Below are positions 1-4,612 of a stretch of DNA of 24,000 nt, in pieces; position 1 is the stretch's first letter, and each line of letters opens with the position of its first letter. The translations under genes were made by a program, and so were the position numbers. The notes below the pieces were generated by a model. It did no database searches. It was not told where the DNA came from and was given only the letters and a program-made list of their open reading frames with translations. This DNA is from Actinomycetota bacterium (GTDB taxonomy: Bacteria; Actinomycetota; Thermoleophilia; BMS3ABIN01): positions 246,733 through 270,732 of the forward strand of contig JACRMB010000005.1 in NCBI GenBank assembly GCA_016235065.1, written 5' to 3'.

Positions 1-1640
1 TCAGATACGGCGGCGTGGTCCAGCCCTGGCAGAACAACTTCGCCGGTATCGGCGCCTTCGACGCTCAGCACCCCGGCTATTCCTGGCCCAGCGCTGAACG
101 GGGCGTGATCGGCCATTATGCCCATCTTTCCTGGTTCATCTATCCGAATCACATCAATGGCTGGTGCAGCAGTTACTGGGATCCCGGCCACGGCAGCAGC
201 CACCGCAACTCGGCCCGCACCCTCAACGACCTCAACGGCCAGTGGGCGGTTCCCGGAGTCGGTTACGGTGACAGACTGGCTAAATATGCTTCCGAGTTCT
301 ATTACTTCACGCCCGGCGGCCACTGGCGCGGCAACTTCAATGAGGTGCCCGGGTCGCCACTGGCGGCACTGGACACCGTTTTCTATTTCCCCTGGTACGA
401 TTCCAGGCCCGGGAACGGCATGGGCGGCAACTGGATAATAGTCGGCAACCAGGGCACCGGCCCCGCCACAGTCGAGATCTGGATCGGCGGTCAGCGGATG
501 AACGACCCGGCCAATCCGGCCAACCAGTTCTTCGTCATCCCTGAGGGCGGCAGGATCACGCCGTCATTCGCAGGGGTGATGGGAGGCCCGGTCAAGGTCG
601 TCTCGCTGACGGGACAGCAGCTCAATGCAGGCCAGAGGGTCATCTACCGCGAGACTTTCAGCGAAGTGCCTGGTACGCCCGCTAGCGGACTCAGCGATTC
701 GCTGGAATTCACCTGGTACGATTCCACCCGGGCAGGCTACATGTTCGGCAACTGGATAATGATCGCCAACATGGGTTCACTGGCGGCCGACGTAGAAGTC
801 TGGATCGGCGACTCGCGAATGGCTGAGTATAAGGCCGCTGCCGGCACCGCCCTCCAGCCTGGAGCCATCGTCACCCCCATGTTCATGGAGACCATGGGTG
901 GCCCGGTCCGGGTCATCTCCACCAACCACCAGCCGCTCATCGCCAGCCAGAGGGTCCTGTATCAGGAAAGCTTCAACGAGGTGATGGGTTACCCGACAGC
1001 CGATCTCGCCAGCCGTTATTTCCTCTCATGGTATGACTCGGAGCATACCAACGGCATGAAGGGCGACTGGCTGGTGATCGCCAACCGGGGTTCTGTGGAC
1101 GCCGATGTGGAGGTTTATGTCGGAGGTATCCAGAAGGCGAGCTATACAACGGCGGGCGGCAACGCGGTCGCTTCCGGCGGCATCGTCGCCCCGTCTTTCA
1201 TGAGCCTTACTGACGGGCCGGTCGAGATAGTCAGCACCAACGGCCAGCCGCTGCTGGTCTCCCAGAGGGTCCTGTTCCGCGACAGCTTCGAGGAAGTCCA
1301 GGGCGTGCCCGATTCCGGCCTGGCCACTGACCAGTACTTCCCCTGGTACGACTCGACTGCCGGGAGTTCCATGGGCGGCGACTGGATCATGGTCACCAAT
1401 CCCGGCCCCGGCACCGCGCGGGTGGAGATCTGGATCGGCGATGTCCTGGTTCACGATCCGGCCCATCCGGGGACACCATATTTTGATATCCCCGACGGTG
1501 GCAACATCACCCCGTCATTCGCGAGCACCATGGGTGGACCAATACGCGTCGTATCTCTCACCGGACAGCCGCTGCTGGCAAGCCAGCGGGTGCTATATAA
1601 ATATAACGTCATCTATTGTGGTAGCGTTCCCTGCGGCTGA
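1..1640 (+). CDS. GH73-like peptidoglycan N-acetylglucosaminidase, 5'-truncated by the window edge, with four C-terminal ~105-aa repeats
   Basis: ORF 15..1640 remains open upstream to nt 3 (..RYGGVVQPW), so the N-terminus lies outside the window. QNNFAGIGA / YAHLSWFIYP / WAVPGVGYG align with SQNNFAGIGA / YAHLAWYAYP / WAVPGTTYG of the downstream paralog. Four tandem repeats start at nt 336. Stop TGA at 1638-1640. Confidence 0.8.
   Translation, partial: RYGGVVQPWQNNFAGIGAFDAQHPGYSWPSAERGVIGHYAHLSWFIYPNHINGWCSSYWDPGHGSSHRNSARTLNDLNGQWAVPGVGYGDRLAKYASEFYYFTPGGHWRGNFNEVPGSPLAALDTVFYFPWYDSRPGNGMGGNWIIVGNQGTGPATVEIWIGGQRMNDPANPANQFFVIPEGGRITPSFAGVMGGPVKVVSLTGQQLNAGQRVIYRETFSEVPGTPASGLSDSLEFTWYDSTRAGYMFGNWIMIANMGSLAADVEVWIGDSRMAEYKAAAGTALQPGAIVTPMFMETMGGPVRVISTNHQPLIASQRVLYQESFNEVMGYPTADLASRYFLSWYDSEHTNGMKGDWLVIANRGSVDADVEVYVGGIQKASYTTAGGNAVASGGIVAPSFMSLTDGPVEIVSTNGQPLLVSQRVLFRDSFEEVQGVPDSGLATDQYFPWYDSTAGSSMGGDWIMVTNPGPGTARVEIWIGDVLVHDPAHPGTPYFDIPDGGNITPSFASTMGGPIRVVSLTGQPLLASQRVLYKYNVIYCGSVPCG
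336..1637 (+). repeat. Four in-frame tandem coding repeats (336-656, 657-971, 972-1286, 1287-1637), each encoding one ~105-107-aa module
   Basis: Each unit begins F-(N/S/E)-E-V-x-G. It contains F-x-WYDS, G-(N/D)-W-(I/L), N-x-G, a V-E-(I/V)-x-(I/V)-G strand and G-P-(V/I), and ends (S/G)-Q-R-V-(L/I)-(Y/F). Boundaries were counted by hand from the translation. Confidence 0.85.
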
Positions 1641-3649
1641 TGAGGCGATTCATGATGGACACACGGATCATTCATTCCAGAAGTAAAAGCGGCTTTTCCG
1701 TAATGAGCTTTATTTTCAGGCCAGCGGGAGCGGCTATCCTGATGGCGCTGGCTACGATAATTGCCTGCGCACTGCTCCTTGGTATCACAACTCCACGCGC
1801 CGAGGCGGTCACGGAAAACGACCAGATCGCCGGGGTCTCCGGCGTCACCGCGGCCCAACTGGAAGCCGAGCTAGCCACTGTCAATCCCAACCATATCCAT
1901 CCGGAGATAGCCCAGCTATATGTCGAGTGGGGCTACCGCTTTGGCATCCGCGCCGATATCGCCTTCGCCCAGATGCTGCTGGAGACAAATTATCTGCGCT
2001 ACTGCGCTTCGTGTGATCCAGCCCACTACGTCCCCGGCGACGTCCATCCGTCACAGAATAATTTCGCCGGAATCGGAGCCACCGGCGGCGGCAATCCTGG
2101 CAATTCTTTCGCCACGGCGGAGCTCGGCGTCATCGCCCAATACGCGCATCTGGCCTGGTACGCCTATCCCGACCATCTGAATGAGTACTGCAATACGATA
2201 TACGACCCACGCCATTTCGGCAGCGGTCATGTCTTCACCGCCCCGATACTGCGCGAGCTGGGAGGCAGATGGGCGGTCCCTGGAACAACCTATGGCCGCG
2301 ACATCGCCCGGCTCGCCAACCAGATCTGGCGCTGGCGTCCGTCGGGCCACGCGCTGGGCAGTTTCAACGAAGTCACAGGCGTTCCGGCCGCAGTTCTGGC
2401 CTCGTCCTTTTATTTTCCCTGGTACGATTCGCTTGCCTCGCACGGCATGGGAGGCAACTGGATCCTGGTCGGCAACCAGGGTAGTGGTGAGGCGCGGGTC
2501 GAGATCAGGATCGGCGATTCCCTGATGCGCGACCCGGCCAATCCCGGCAACGAGTTTTTCACCATCCCTGAGGGCGGCCAGATCACGCCCGCCTTCCCCA
2601 ACGTCATGGATGGACCTGTGATGGTCATCTGCACGACCGGTCAACCGCTGATCACCAGTCAGCGGGTGCTCTACCGCGACTCGTTCAGCGAAGTCCCCGG
2701 GACACCCGTGCACAGGCTTTCGGAATCCTATGAGTTCACCTGGTATGATTCGCTACCGCAGAACGGCATGGGCGGTAACTGGATACTAGTGGCCAACCCT
2801 GGCCTCGCCGCCGCCGACGTGGAGATCCTTGTCGACGGGGAAGTGAAGGCCGCGTATAAAGCCGAATATGGCAACGCCCTGGCCCCCGGCGATATTGTGA
2901 CTCCGTATTTCCCAAACCTGGCTGCAGGGCCGGTGCTCGTGCGCTCGACCAACCATCAGCAGCTGATCGCCAGCCAGCGCGTCGTTTATCGCAACAGTTT
3001 CAATGAGGTCATGGGCTTCCCGACCGGACTGCTGGCGAGTGATTTCAGCTTCGCCTGGTATGATTCCGAACCTGCGAACGGCATGGGCGGCGACTGGCTG
3101 ATGGTGACCAACCGCGGCAGCCTGCCGGCCGATGTCGATATCTATGTGGGCGGCGTTCTCAGGGCTAGATACAGCGCCGTGGCTGGCAACCCGATCCTGC
3201 CCGGAGAAATGGTCTCGCCGACGTTCCCCCATCTGACCGCAGGACCGGTGCGGGCGATCTGCTCCAACGGCCAGCCGATCATGGCGTCTCAGCGGGTTGT
3301 ATACCGCGAGAGCTTCGAGGAAGTGCAGGGGACGCTTCCTGCCGACCTTTCAGACAATCACTTCTTTACCTGGTACGATTCAACCCTCTTCGATTACATG
3401 TGGGGAGACTGGCTCATGATCTCCAACCTCGGAAGCGGCACTGCGACGGTGGAGATCTATACCGGAGAAATCAGGATGCATGACCAGCAGCATCCCGGCT
3501 ACACTTACTTCACGATTCCGGAAGGCGGCACCATCACCCCCTACTTCTGGAATCACAAGGGCGGTCCCATCAGGATCGTCTCCACCACTGGCCAGCCATT
3601 GTTGACCAGTCAGCGAGTTCTTTACAAGGAAGGTCTCACGAGGTGGTAG
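1640..3649 (+). CDS. Secreted GH73-like peptidoglycan N-acetylglucosaminidase with four C-terminal ~105-aa repeats (full-length paralog)
   Basis: The N-terminus has a hydrophobic signal or anchor (AAILMALATIIACALLLGITTPRAEA/VT, an AXA-type site). FAQMLLETNYL provides the GH73-type catalytic Glu context; QNNFAGIGA and WAVPGTTYG follow. ATG 1640-1642 overlaps the upstream stop (TGATG). Alternative starts exist at internal Met codons up to nt 1703. Confidence 0.85.
   Translation: MRRFMMDTRIIHSRSKSGFSVMSFIFRPAGAAILMALATIIACALLLGITTPRAEAVTENDQIAGVSGVTAAQLEAELATVNPNHIHPEIAQLYVEWGYRFGIRADIAFAQMLLETNYLRYCASCDPAHYVPGDVHPSQNNFAGIGATGGGNPGNSFATAELGVIAQYAHLAWYAYPDHLNEYCNTIYDPRHFGSGHVFTAPILRELGGRWAVPGTTYGRDIARLANQIWRWRPSGHALGSFNEVTGVPAAVLASSFYFPWYDSLASHGMGGNWILVGNQGSGEARVEIRIGDSLMRDPANPGNEFFTIPEGGQITPAFPNVMDGPVMVICTTGQPLITSQRVLYRDSFSEVPGTPVHRLSESYEFTWYDSLPQNGMGGNWILVANPGLAAADVEILVDGEVKAAYKAEYGNALAPGDIVTPYFPNLAAGPVLVRSTNHQQLIASQRVVYRNSFNEVMGFPTGLLASDFSFAWYDSEPANGMGGDWLMVTNRGSLPADVDIYVGGVLRARYSAVAGNPILPGEMVSPTFPHLTAGPVRAICSNGQPIMASQRVVYRESFEEVQGTLPADLSDNHFFTWYDSTLFDYMWGDWLMISNLGSGTATVEIYTGEIRMHDQQHPGYTYFTIPEGGTITPYFWNHKGGPIRIVSTTGQPLLTSQRVLYKEGLTRW
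2363..3646 (+). repeat. Four in-frame tandem coding repeats (2363-2683, 2684-2998, 2999-3313, 3314-3646), colinear with the repeats of the upstream paralog
   Basis: Same motif skeleton as 336-1637. Repeat n here is most similar to repeat n of the upstream gene. Confidence 0.85.
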
Positions 3650-3653
3650 CTCG

Positions 3654-3727
3654 GGCGGGACGGGTTGTTCCCGCCGCAGCGTTTGCCGAAGGCGCAGTCA
3701 GTGGAGGCAGGAACAACCCGTCCCGCC
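3654..3727. terminator. Inverted duplication of an 18-nt GC-rich sequence between convergent genes; putative bidirectional terminator
   Basis: ggcgggacgggttgttcc (3654-3671) is the exact reverse complement of 3710-3727. Local hairpins are possible on each strand: + strand GGCGGGA(3654-3660)/TCCCGCC(3669-3675); - strand GGCAGG/CCTGCC (3726-3731 / 3706-3711). The U-tracts are weak. Confidence 0.4.
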
Positions 3728-3733
3728 TGCCTG

Positions 3734-4612
3734 TCACCTGCCCGGCTCGATGTGGATGATCACATCCGTCTCTTCCCCGAAGAAATTCTTCAGCCGCCGT
3801 TCCACGTGTGAGGCGATATCGTGTGAACGCCTGGTGGTGATGTCGGGCTCCACCAGCAGATGCAGGTCTATCCAGTAACCTGCCTCGCTGCCGCGGGTGC
3901 GTATCTTGTGACAGCCGAGGATCTCCTCCTCGCCGCCGCTTAAACAGATCTCCTCGATCTGCTTTGGGTCGACCACAGCGCGGTCGAGCAGCACAAAGGA
4001 GGCTTCCTTCATGATCCTGAATGCCGCGTAGGCGATTACCAGGGCGATGGCGCCGCCCACGAACGCGTCCACCATCGGGTAGCCCAGGCGCACGGCCACA
4101 AGGCTGCCGATGACCGACAGCGAGACGAAGACATCGCTCATGGTGTGACGGGAATCCGCGACCAGGAAGACGCTGGACAGTTTCTTCCCCTGATTTCGCT
4201 CGTATAGGCTGACGCTGATGTTGACAGCGATGGTCACACCCATGACCACGAATGCCAGGGTGCCGATCTCGGGTACGCTGGGATTTTCCGCGGTCAGCCT
4301 GCCGTAGACGCTCTCGCCGATCTGCAGTGCCGTTATCAGCAGGAGCAGCACGATGCCCATGCTGGCGAAAGTCTCGAACTTGGAGTGGCCGTATGAATGG
4401 TCTTCATCCCTGGGGCGGGAGGCCAGGCTGATGCCGATAAGACCGATGATGTTGGATGAGCCGTCCATCAGGGAGTGGAAGGCGTCGGCGACCATGCCGA
4501 TCGAGCCGTCCATCCAGCCGACCACGCCCTTCCCCAGTGCTACCGCCACATTGGCGAAGAGTACATAGATGAGCACCCGGCGGATCCGGTGATAACGATC
4601 AAGGCTGCTCAT
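3734..4612 (-). CDS. Cation diffusion facilitator (CDF) family divalent-metal efflux transporter
   Basis: DAFHSLMD (TM2 metal site) and SRHTMSD (TM5 H-x3-D), six hydrophobic segments and a C-terminal cytoplasmic domain. ATG 4612 overlaps the upstream stop (ATGA). Confidence 0.9.
   Translation of the reverse strand: MSSLDRYHRIRRVLIYVLFANVAVALGKGVVGWMDGSIGMVADAFHSLMDGSSNIIGLIGISLASRPRDEDHSYGHSKFETFASMGIVLLLLITALQIGESVYGRLTAENPSVPEIGTLAFVVMGVTIAVNISVSLYERNQGKKLSSVFLVADSRHTMSDVFVSLSVIGSLVAVRLGYPMVDAFVGGAIALVIAYAAFRIMKEASFVLLDRAVVDPKQIEEICLSGGEEEILGCHKIRTRGSEAGYWIDLHLLVEPDITTRRSHDIASHVERRLKNFFGEETDVIIHIEPGR

Follow-up and report, generated by a model that had tools for sequence, protein, structure and literature searches.

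The window analyzed here is a stretch of 24,000 nucleotides from an uncultured bacterium of the Thermoleophilia (Actinomycetota; contig JACRMB010000005.1), and it begins with two adjacent plus-strand genes, A and B. We consider it probable that these genes encode co-transcribed, Sec-secreted N-acetylglucosaminidases of family GH73, tethered by a tetrad of repeats that resemble the ASRAH superfamily. Both proteins have the same architecture, with a predicted signal peptide, a catalytic domain of ~180 aa, and a C-terminal block of four β-sandwich repeats of ~105 aa each.

Paralogy and catalytic domain

Open reading frame (ORF) A (3..1640, + strand) loses its 5' end at the window edge and reads through 545 codons of frame 3, starting at base 3, without an internal stop before the TGA at 1638-1640. 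Absent from the window are ~103 N-terminal residues with the signal peptide and, 5 residues upstream of the window start, the catalytic Glu; the C-terminus reads ...YKYNVIYCGSVPCG*. ORF B (1640..3649, + strand), bounded by ATG 1640 and TAG 3647-3649, codes for 669 aa, or 648 aa if the start is ATG 1703, and ends in ...YKEGLTRW*. BLASTP aligned 531 residues of A and B with 57% identity and a single gap, and the motifs QNNFAGIGA, YAHL.W..YP and WAVPG..YG are common to both, bearing out an earlier note, made from the sequence alone, that had described the two as paralogs with common catalytic segments. Each paralog also has a specific cysteine feature. B-type proteins carry an extra Cys-containing loop (YCASCDPAHYVPG) right after the catalytic Glu (window 1988-2030, B residues ~117-131), with a low predicted local distance difference test score (pLDDT); A-type proteins lack this loop but have a two-Cys tail, YCGSVPCG (the tail of A spans 1605-1637).

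The catalytic domain of B was placed at residues ~60-240 (1817..2359, + strand) from PF01832, a profile match to TftA, conservation and Foldseek. Residues 60-229 match positions 287-443 of the 450-position NCBIfam TftA profile (NF050040) with E 8.7e-25 and 87.3 bits, the C-terminal part of TftA being a glucosaminidase domain of pfam01832 in which a Glu is conserved (PMC10710843). The C-terminal two thirds of the domain of A (3..335, + strand), located by alignment to B, carry QNNFAGIGA, YAHLSW and WAVPGVGYG, and match TftA profile positions 349-440 with E 1.1e-6. PF01832 is precomputed for 34 of 42 full-length homologs, and the NCBI name of the homologs is 'glucosaminidase domain-containing protein [Thermoleophilia bacterium]'. 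An alignment of 43 sequences revealed ten invariant residues: E115, Q139, N140, N141, A143, G144, G146, W211, G215 and Y218. By its invariance, E115 in the segment AFAQMLLETN of B (1982-1984, + strand) is the candidate catalytic Glu; the A-type Glu is seen in the orthologs P0030 and P0032 (...MMHETGSLRYGG...). As in GH73, the conserved Glu lies in an N-terminal helix and is followed by an NN(F/L)xGI motif.

The AF2 model of full-length B (pLDDT 88.5, predicted template modeling score (pTM) 0.75) predicts for this domain a lysozyme-like α-helical fold as in known glucosaminidases. Foldseek searches of BFVD with the full model matched a Bacillus phage G peptidoglycan hydrolase (E 7.6e-11, 183 columns), UPI001E7C418E (root-mean-square deviation (rmsd) 2.3 Å over 171 columns, TMt 0.67) and two entries named 'endo-beta-N-acetylglucosaminidase'. 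The same search against the PDB was uninformative because its list was swamped by the repeats, yielding only multi-sandwich chains of low template modeling score (TM ~0.1), such as Vip3, complement C3/C5 and CBM51 tandems. On these profile and fold matches we assign the predicted catalytic domain of A and B to GH73 as a divergent member, in a subfamily that includes the C-terminal domain of TftA, and hydrolysis of GlcNAc-(1,4)-MurNAc is its predicted reaction. The GH73-like catalytic region named in the earlier note is thus supported by a sub-threshold PF01832 match, the 34 annotated homologs, the TftA profile and the phage glucosaminidase fold. Identification of A or B with TftA itself was rejected, given 87 bits against an equivalog cut-off of 500 bits and no amidase domain. 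A scan of GTDB genomes with the family alignment, which mostly recovered relatives of the catalytic domain, placed the catalytic subfamily at 407 sites, in Bacillota (Halobacillus, Metabacillus, Aneurinibacillus, Selenomonadales) and Actinomycetota; in only about a dozen species is it joined to the four repeats.

The segment of B at 1703..1807 (+ strand), MSFIFRPAGAAILMALATIIACALLLGITTPRAEA|VTEND, is probably a Sec signal peptide, with a helix predicted by AF2 at B residues 28-49 and an A-x-A site that is almost invariant in the family alignment (A54 and A56). A lipobox-like motif, (L/I/M/F)-x-A-C, is found inside the hydrophobic region of the signal peptide in most A- and B-type orthologs; that of B is IIAC (window 1763-1768, B residues 42-43), and it is not kept in every ortholog, P0029 being one that lacks it. 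Lipoprotein processing at this IIAC/LLAC motif is less likely, as the Cys-less P0029 still keeps the A-x-A|V site.

The four-repeat module

The repeat blocks lie at 336..1604 in A (repeats 336-656, 657-971, 972-1286 and 1287-1604) and at 2363..3631 in B (repeats 2363-2683, 2684-2998, 2999-3313 and 3314-3631), both on the + strand, with boundaries set by anchoring on the motifs F.EV, WYDS and SQRV. The repeats of each protein, four in a row and 105-107 aa long, are colinear between the genes as previously described, and a recount of repeat A1 against B1 gave exactly the 68 identical of 107 positions counted by hand in the earlier note. A-B alignments shifted out of register were also returned by BLASTP (E = 2e-88 and 2e-81), so that the internal repetition is not due to chance. 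The former statement that repeats within one protein share little beyond a motif skeleton was too strong: their measured identity is 39-59%, compared with 54-64% for same-position pairs of A and B.

The closest relative of each repeat is the repeat at the same position in another protein, for 176 of 176 repeats from 44 family members, and the four-repeat module also occurs in many unrelated proteins. These sequence comparisons indicate that the repeat array predates the A/B duplication, and also the fusion to GH73, which supports the earlier order of events, with the array formed first and the whole gene duplicated later. Repeats 1 and 4 are alike (54% mean identity, with the loop DPANPGN..F.IPEGG in both), as are repeats 2 and 3 (54%), other pairings being at 45-49%; this palindromic likeness is not expected from simple dyad duplication.

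Profile scans found no Pfam or NCBIfam family that covers the repeats. In the AF2 model the repeat block of B is all-β with pLDDT above 90, and a model of a single repeat (pLDDT 85.7) is an eight-stranded β-sandwich superposable on ASRT and TM1070. Foldseek matched the single repeat to the ASRT chains 2ii7, 2ii8 and 2iia (TM 0.52-0.66, rmsd 3.0-5.3 Å) and to TM1070 (1nc7, TM up to 0.58), and also to the jelly-roll carbohydrate-binding modules (CBMs) CBM51, CBM36, CBM6 and CBM35. ASRT and TM1070 belong to the ASRAH superfamily, defined by De Souza, Iyer & Aravind in 2009, which is marked by a strand-1 Trp and by an Asn, almost invariant, that ends strand 2 before a tight turn to strand 3 (PMC2739507). 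According to the same work, TM1070 is a tetramer, the secreted, amidase-fused ASRAH proteins of Chloroflexi are tetrads, and ASRAH domains are predicted to bind sugar or peptidoglycan. In the repeats of A and B, N40 (WILVAN-xGxxxA-xVEI) is invariant among 46 diverse repeats and aligns with the hallmark Asn of ASRT (TVCILN-AGDEDA-HVEI) in hmmsearch and hhalign alike, while W22 (T/S/P-WYD) is conserved in at least 90% and is reached by neither ASRT alignment. A copy number of four or eight is in keeping with the tetrad and dyad organization of extracellular ASRAH proteins, and no significant sequence-profile link to ASRAH was obtained. With weak sequence statistics, and with the assignment resting on the modeled fold, the hallmark Asn and the tetrad organization, we designate the repeats ASRAH-like with moderate confidence.

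Other matches of the repeats were also noted. Weak Pfam hits to PLipase_C_C, CARDB, Slr4 and Enas were set aside as generic likeness of β-sandwich patterns, not membership. DUF5719 was matched by 3 of 77 module proteins (best E 1.1e-12), the ten module proteins scanned singly being others; this family might be an actinobacterial ASRAH dyad lipoprotein family. In BFVD, the full model of B aligned with Q6XLX4 (FirrV-1-C4) of Feldmannia irregularis virus a, a phaeovirus of a brown alga, over 449 columns (rmsd 4.9 Å, E 9e-10), the alignment spanning the whole four-domain module.

The copy number of the repeats is nearly fixed. Among 117 repeat-bearing homologs, 116 have exactly four copies and one has eight. 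A repeat profile built from the 46 diverse repeats matched at least 1,732 protein clusters (50% identity) at E <= 1e-3, including 715 at E <= 1e-30, most cluster representatives having four matched stretches and some eight. Out of 144 representatives, 110 have four repeats and 7 have eight, the rest being mostly permuted tetrads or truncated proteins, and the module ends the protein in 127. Its partners include CAP, Big_7/Big_13, GH26, GH5, GH16, subtilase (S8), thermolysin (M4), M6, M14, CHAP, SpoIID, amidase and NosD/β-helix domains; one Thermoleophilia protein of 1,770 aa combines amidase and SpoIID domains with eight repeats, and some proteins of ~550 aa have little besides a signal peptide and the module. 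In Chloroflexota, too, the module is common, as in Ornatilinea and Anaerolineales.

About 20 representatives, including P0179, P0180, P0214 and P0257, have circularly permuted tetrads, in which a part-repeat (profile positions 44-103, the last ~60%) is followed by three full repeats and a C-terminal part-repeat (positions 1 to ~25-40); in P0179 the two part-repeats are complementary. A split repeat folds only if the ends of the module meet, and the permuted forms thus point to closure. The first strand, FSEVPG, is disordered in the AF2 model of a lone repeat and ordered in that of the full protein, where it probably packs on the neighboring repeat. The fixed number of four, the permuted forms, the swapped first strand and the high pTM together suggest that the module is one closed pseudo-tetrameric unit, in which the repeats may be arranged as a ring.

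Expression, history and surroundings of the pair

The TGA of A (1638-1640) and ATG 1640-1642 have one base in common, as the earlier note observed, and form a TGATG stop/start overlap (1638..1642, + strand) that can be read directly within ...GGCTGATGAGG... Five related loci also carry A and B in tandem. One of them, L002, has an overlap of like type, TAATG. In L001 a TGATG is present, but its ATG is not in frame with B and runs into a stop; B starts instead at MSIIFR, the equivalent of window ATG 1703. The 21-residue extension that would follow from ATG 1640 is not conserved among orthologs, and no clear Shine-Dalgarno sequence was found upstream of ATG 1640 or ATG 1703. The stop/start overlap is therefore not conserved, and the translational coupling that had been read from it is possible but uncertain.

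In the window and all five related tandem loci, the spacing between A and B is -1 to ~+60 nt (1-35 nt in the loci other than the window, L001 and L002). No terminator-like site was found between A and B. RNA folding predicted a long hairpin at 3641..3739, between the convergent B and a cation-efflux gene, with -66.7 kcal/mol, z = -6.1 and a perfect core stem of ~20 bp, which probably serves as a bidirectional terminator or represents a repeat element. The short gap, the lack of a terminator between the genes and the hairpin after B make co-transcription likely, and the co-expression suggested earlier is plausible given the gaps of at most ~60 nt and the absence of an intervening terminator.

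The closest proteins come from metagenome-assembled genomes (MAGs) of Thermoleophilia, Gaiellales and Actinomycetota. Close orthologs of A at full length are P0030 (648 aa) and P0032 (650 aa), both with a complete catalytic domain and signal peptide. L001 and L002 have the same gene order, ferredoxin(-), A(+), B(+), CDF(-), DUF362, RecN, NadK, TlyA and DXS, with the divergent ferredoxin gene and then pyrG to the left of A. The order A then B is also found in L006, L009 and L011, and the MAGs SURF_19 and SKS1.bin55 have A-type and B-type genes on different contigs. The two types differ in their C-terminal tails, which are ...YKYNVxYCGGVPCG or a related YKY tail in A-type proteins and ...YK(E/D)GLxR in B-type proteins. 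A-type and B-type proteins are separate conserved ortholog groups of a Thermoleophilia/Gaiellales-like clade. The ratio of nonsynonymous to synonymous substitution rates (dN/dS) between orthologs is 0.07-0.12 for both genes (0.106 for B against its L001 ortholog), and dS between A and B is ~1.5. Together with the conserved tandem loci, these estimates indicate that the duplication is old and that both copies are under purifying selection.

A and B are the only + strand genes in the window, as had been stated, all other Pfam-supported genes lying on the - strand. These encode a CDF transporter, DUF362, RecN, NAD kinase, TlyA, an IS200-type transposase, DXS, polyprenyl synthase, a NusB-like protein, biotin carboxylase, an oxaloacetate-decarboxylase-type subunit, EF-P, an M24 peptidase, aroQ/B/K/C products and PilO. 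The IS200-like Y1 transposase (PF01797, 9462-10151, - strand) lies between the tlyA-like gene and dxs; since these two genes are adjacent in L001 and L002, it looks like a recent insertion in this genome.

Proposed role, alternatives and related systems

In the role we propose, A and B would be secreted by Sec after co-transcription, and the four β-sandwiches of each would close into one pseudo-tetramer. The tetrad would bind a glycan of the cell's own envelope and keep the enzyme at the wall, where E115 would act as general acid and GlcNAc-beta-1,4-MurNAc would be cleaved in wall turnover, growth or cell separation, presumably with divided roles for A and B. Surface retention is suggested by the occurrence of one module on enzymes with unrelated substrates and by its C-terminal position. 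A wider version, which we put forward only tentatively, is that the tetrad is a distinct surface-anchoring module, a general envelope-holding device of Thermoleophilia and Anaerolineae that would bind a lineage-specific wall glycopolymer; on that equally tentative footing, A and B could count among the proteins it anchors, each with an autolytic role of its own.

Several observations weigh against the assignment of A and B as GH73 enzymes tethered by ASRAH-like repeats. The PF01832 score of B, 24.2 bits (E 5.9e-5), is under the gathering threshold of 30.2 bits, the A fragment gives no Pfam match, and neither phmmer nor profile hmmsearch with B or the family alignment recovered a GH73 structure from the PDB. 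For the repeats, the Foldseek match to ASRT has probability 1.00 but E of only ~1e-2, and jelly-roll CBMs score similarly. A search of PDB sequences with the repeat profile gives ASRT at E 0.4 only, and hhalign against an alignment of PF07100 proteins, which consisted of fragments of low diversity, gave probability 29.7% and P 5.6e-4 over 46 columns. None of the 46 repeats matches PF07100. Finally, P0180 (662 aa) joins an ABC-transporter ATPase domain to a permuted tetrad, a combination ill-suited to a purely extracellular role.

The resemblance to CBM51, CBM36, CBM6 and CBM35 raises the question of whether the four-repeat block is instead a substrate-targeting CBM or lectin, in which case A and B would be exo-enzymes acting on foreign peptidoglycan or chitin-like glycans and not autolysins of their own surface. 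The GH5, GH16 and GH26 glycanases among the partners of the module would fit such a use, and recycling of necromass is plausible in the sediment and subsurface communities from which the MAGs derive. However, the partners also include S8, M4, M6 and M14 proteases, CAP and Ig-like proteins, which have no common glycan substrate, a pattern typical of surface retention, and the position-specific conservation and fixed number of four speak for one structural unit and not for additive copies; we regard a foraging role as unlikely. We give still less weight to the repeats being a non-binding scaffold, whether as spacer or stalk or as a surface-layer element that assembles by itself and displays the catalytic domain. 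Faint likenesses to Ig-like/CARDB sandwiches, to the S-layer protein Slr4, to PLipase_C_C and to endospore-appendage folds agree with a scaffold, as do the ~550-aa proteins that are little more than signal peptide and module. Yet spacers usually vary in copy number, here fixed at 4 or 8, the best structural relatives bind small molecules or sugars, and the module sits mostly at the extreme C-terminus (127/144), as wall anchors do.

That A is a decaying pseudogene fragment, or belongs to a longer tandem array that continues leftwards, is very improbable, even though A runs off the window edge with its start out of view. Its 545 codons lack an internal stop, and its identity to full-length orthologs with signal peptides is 92.5% for the 648-aa protein of L001 (dN/dS 0.095) and 88% for a second one (dN/dS 0.066). 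These data refute the concern that the upstream ORF might be a pseudogene fragment. The earlier suggestion that more copies may lie to the left is likewise contradicted by the syntenic relatives L001 and L002, which have the ferredoxin gene and pyrG at that position, exactly two copies, and nothing similar further left.

Our preferred reading of A and B as wall-tethered glucosaminidases has its closest precedent in the Chloroflexi ASRAH-amidase tetrads (PMC2739507), with which the module was compared through their published description. Like A and B, these are secreted peptidoglycan hydrolases with four tandem ASRT-like β-sandwiches, predicted to form a hetero-tetramer-like unit that binds sugar or peptidoglycan, and they have the hallmark Asn after strand 2 found in the repeats of A and B. 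The A/B-type module likewise occurs in Chloroflexota and on Thermoleophilia amidase/SpoIID proteins. The Chloroflexi family was described as 'always fused to an amidase' (PMC2739507), whereas the partner in A and B is GH73 and the module is found elsewhere on dozens of enzyme types. A search with the Ornatilinea module returned many Chloroflexota 'hypothetical proteins', with no named amidase among the best 120 matches. The catalytic domain is closest to the C-terminal glucosaminidase domain of TftA, a morphoprotein of the tapered terminus of hormogonia in Nostoc punctiforme (NF050040, PMC10710843). A and B differ from TftA in having no amidase_3 domain and no β-sheet linker and in coming from another phylum, and TftA is without the tetrad.

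ASRT (2II7) and TM1070 (1NC7), of PF07100, are the best structural matches of the repeat and have in common with it the Asn-turn-strand core xhhhN-x5-A-x-V-x-I. They are intracellular, single-domain proteins that form homotetramers as stand-alone chains, whereas four copies are fused in one chain in A and B, and their ligand residues (H and C of SHEshChhN) are replaced in the A/B repeats. Among modular GH73 autolysins, LytB has choline-binding repeats, Auto has GW modules, and AcmA and AtlA have LysM domains. A and B share this logic, the signal peptide and GH73 domain being accompanied by C-terminal repeated modules without catalytic function, which in those autolysins retain the enzyme at the wall; the tetrad differs in its fold, in having no Pfam model and in its fixed number of four instead of a variable one. 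The SLH and CWB2 triads of Bacillota are fixed tandem repeats that form a pseudo-symmetric unit and anchor varied secreted proteins to a secondary wall polymer. Their broad client range matches the partner range of the A/B-type module, but they consist of three helical or α-β repeats with proven anchoring, without relation in sequence or fold to the four β-sandwiches of A and B, for which anchoring is predicted from domain context.

By itself the gene pair is routine, as GH73 autolysins of modular build are common, duplicated ones included, and records of the proteins already bear the name 'glucosaminidase domain-containing protein'. The part of note is the unannotated tetrad, which has no Pfam model and is found in at least 1,732 clusters from poorly known, mostly uncultured lineages. 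If the tetrad is a wall-anchoring unit, it would define how the exoproteome is displayed in these bacteria and would help to predict surface proteins from their MAGs. The prediction made in 2009, of sugar binding by ASRT-like domains in tetrameric form, would also be put to an experimental test.

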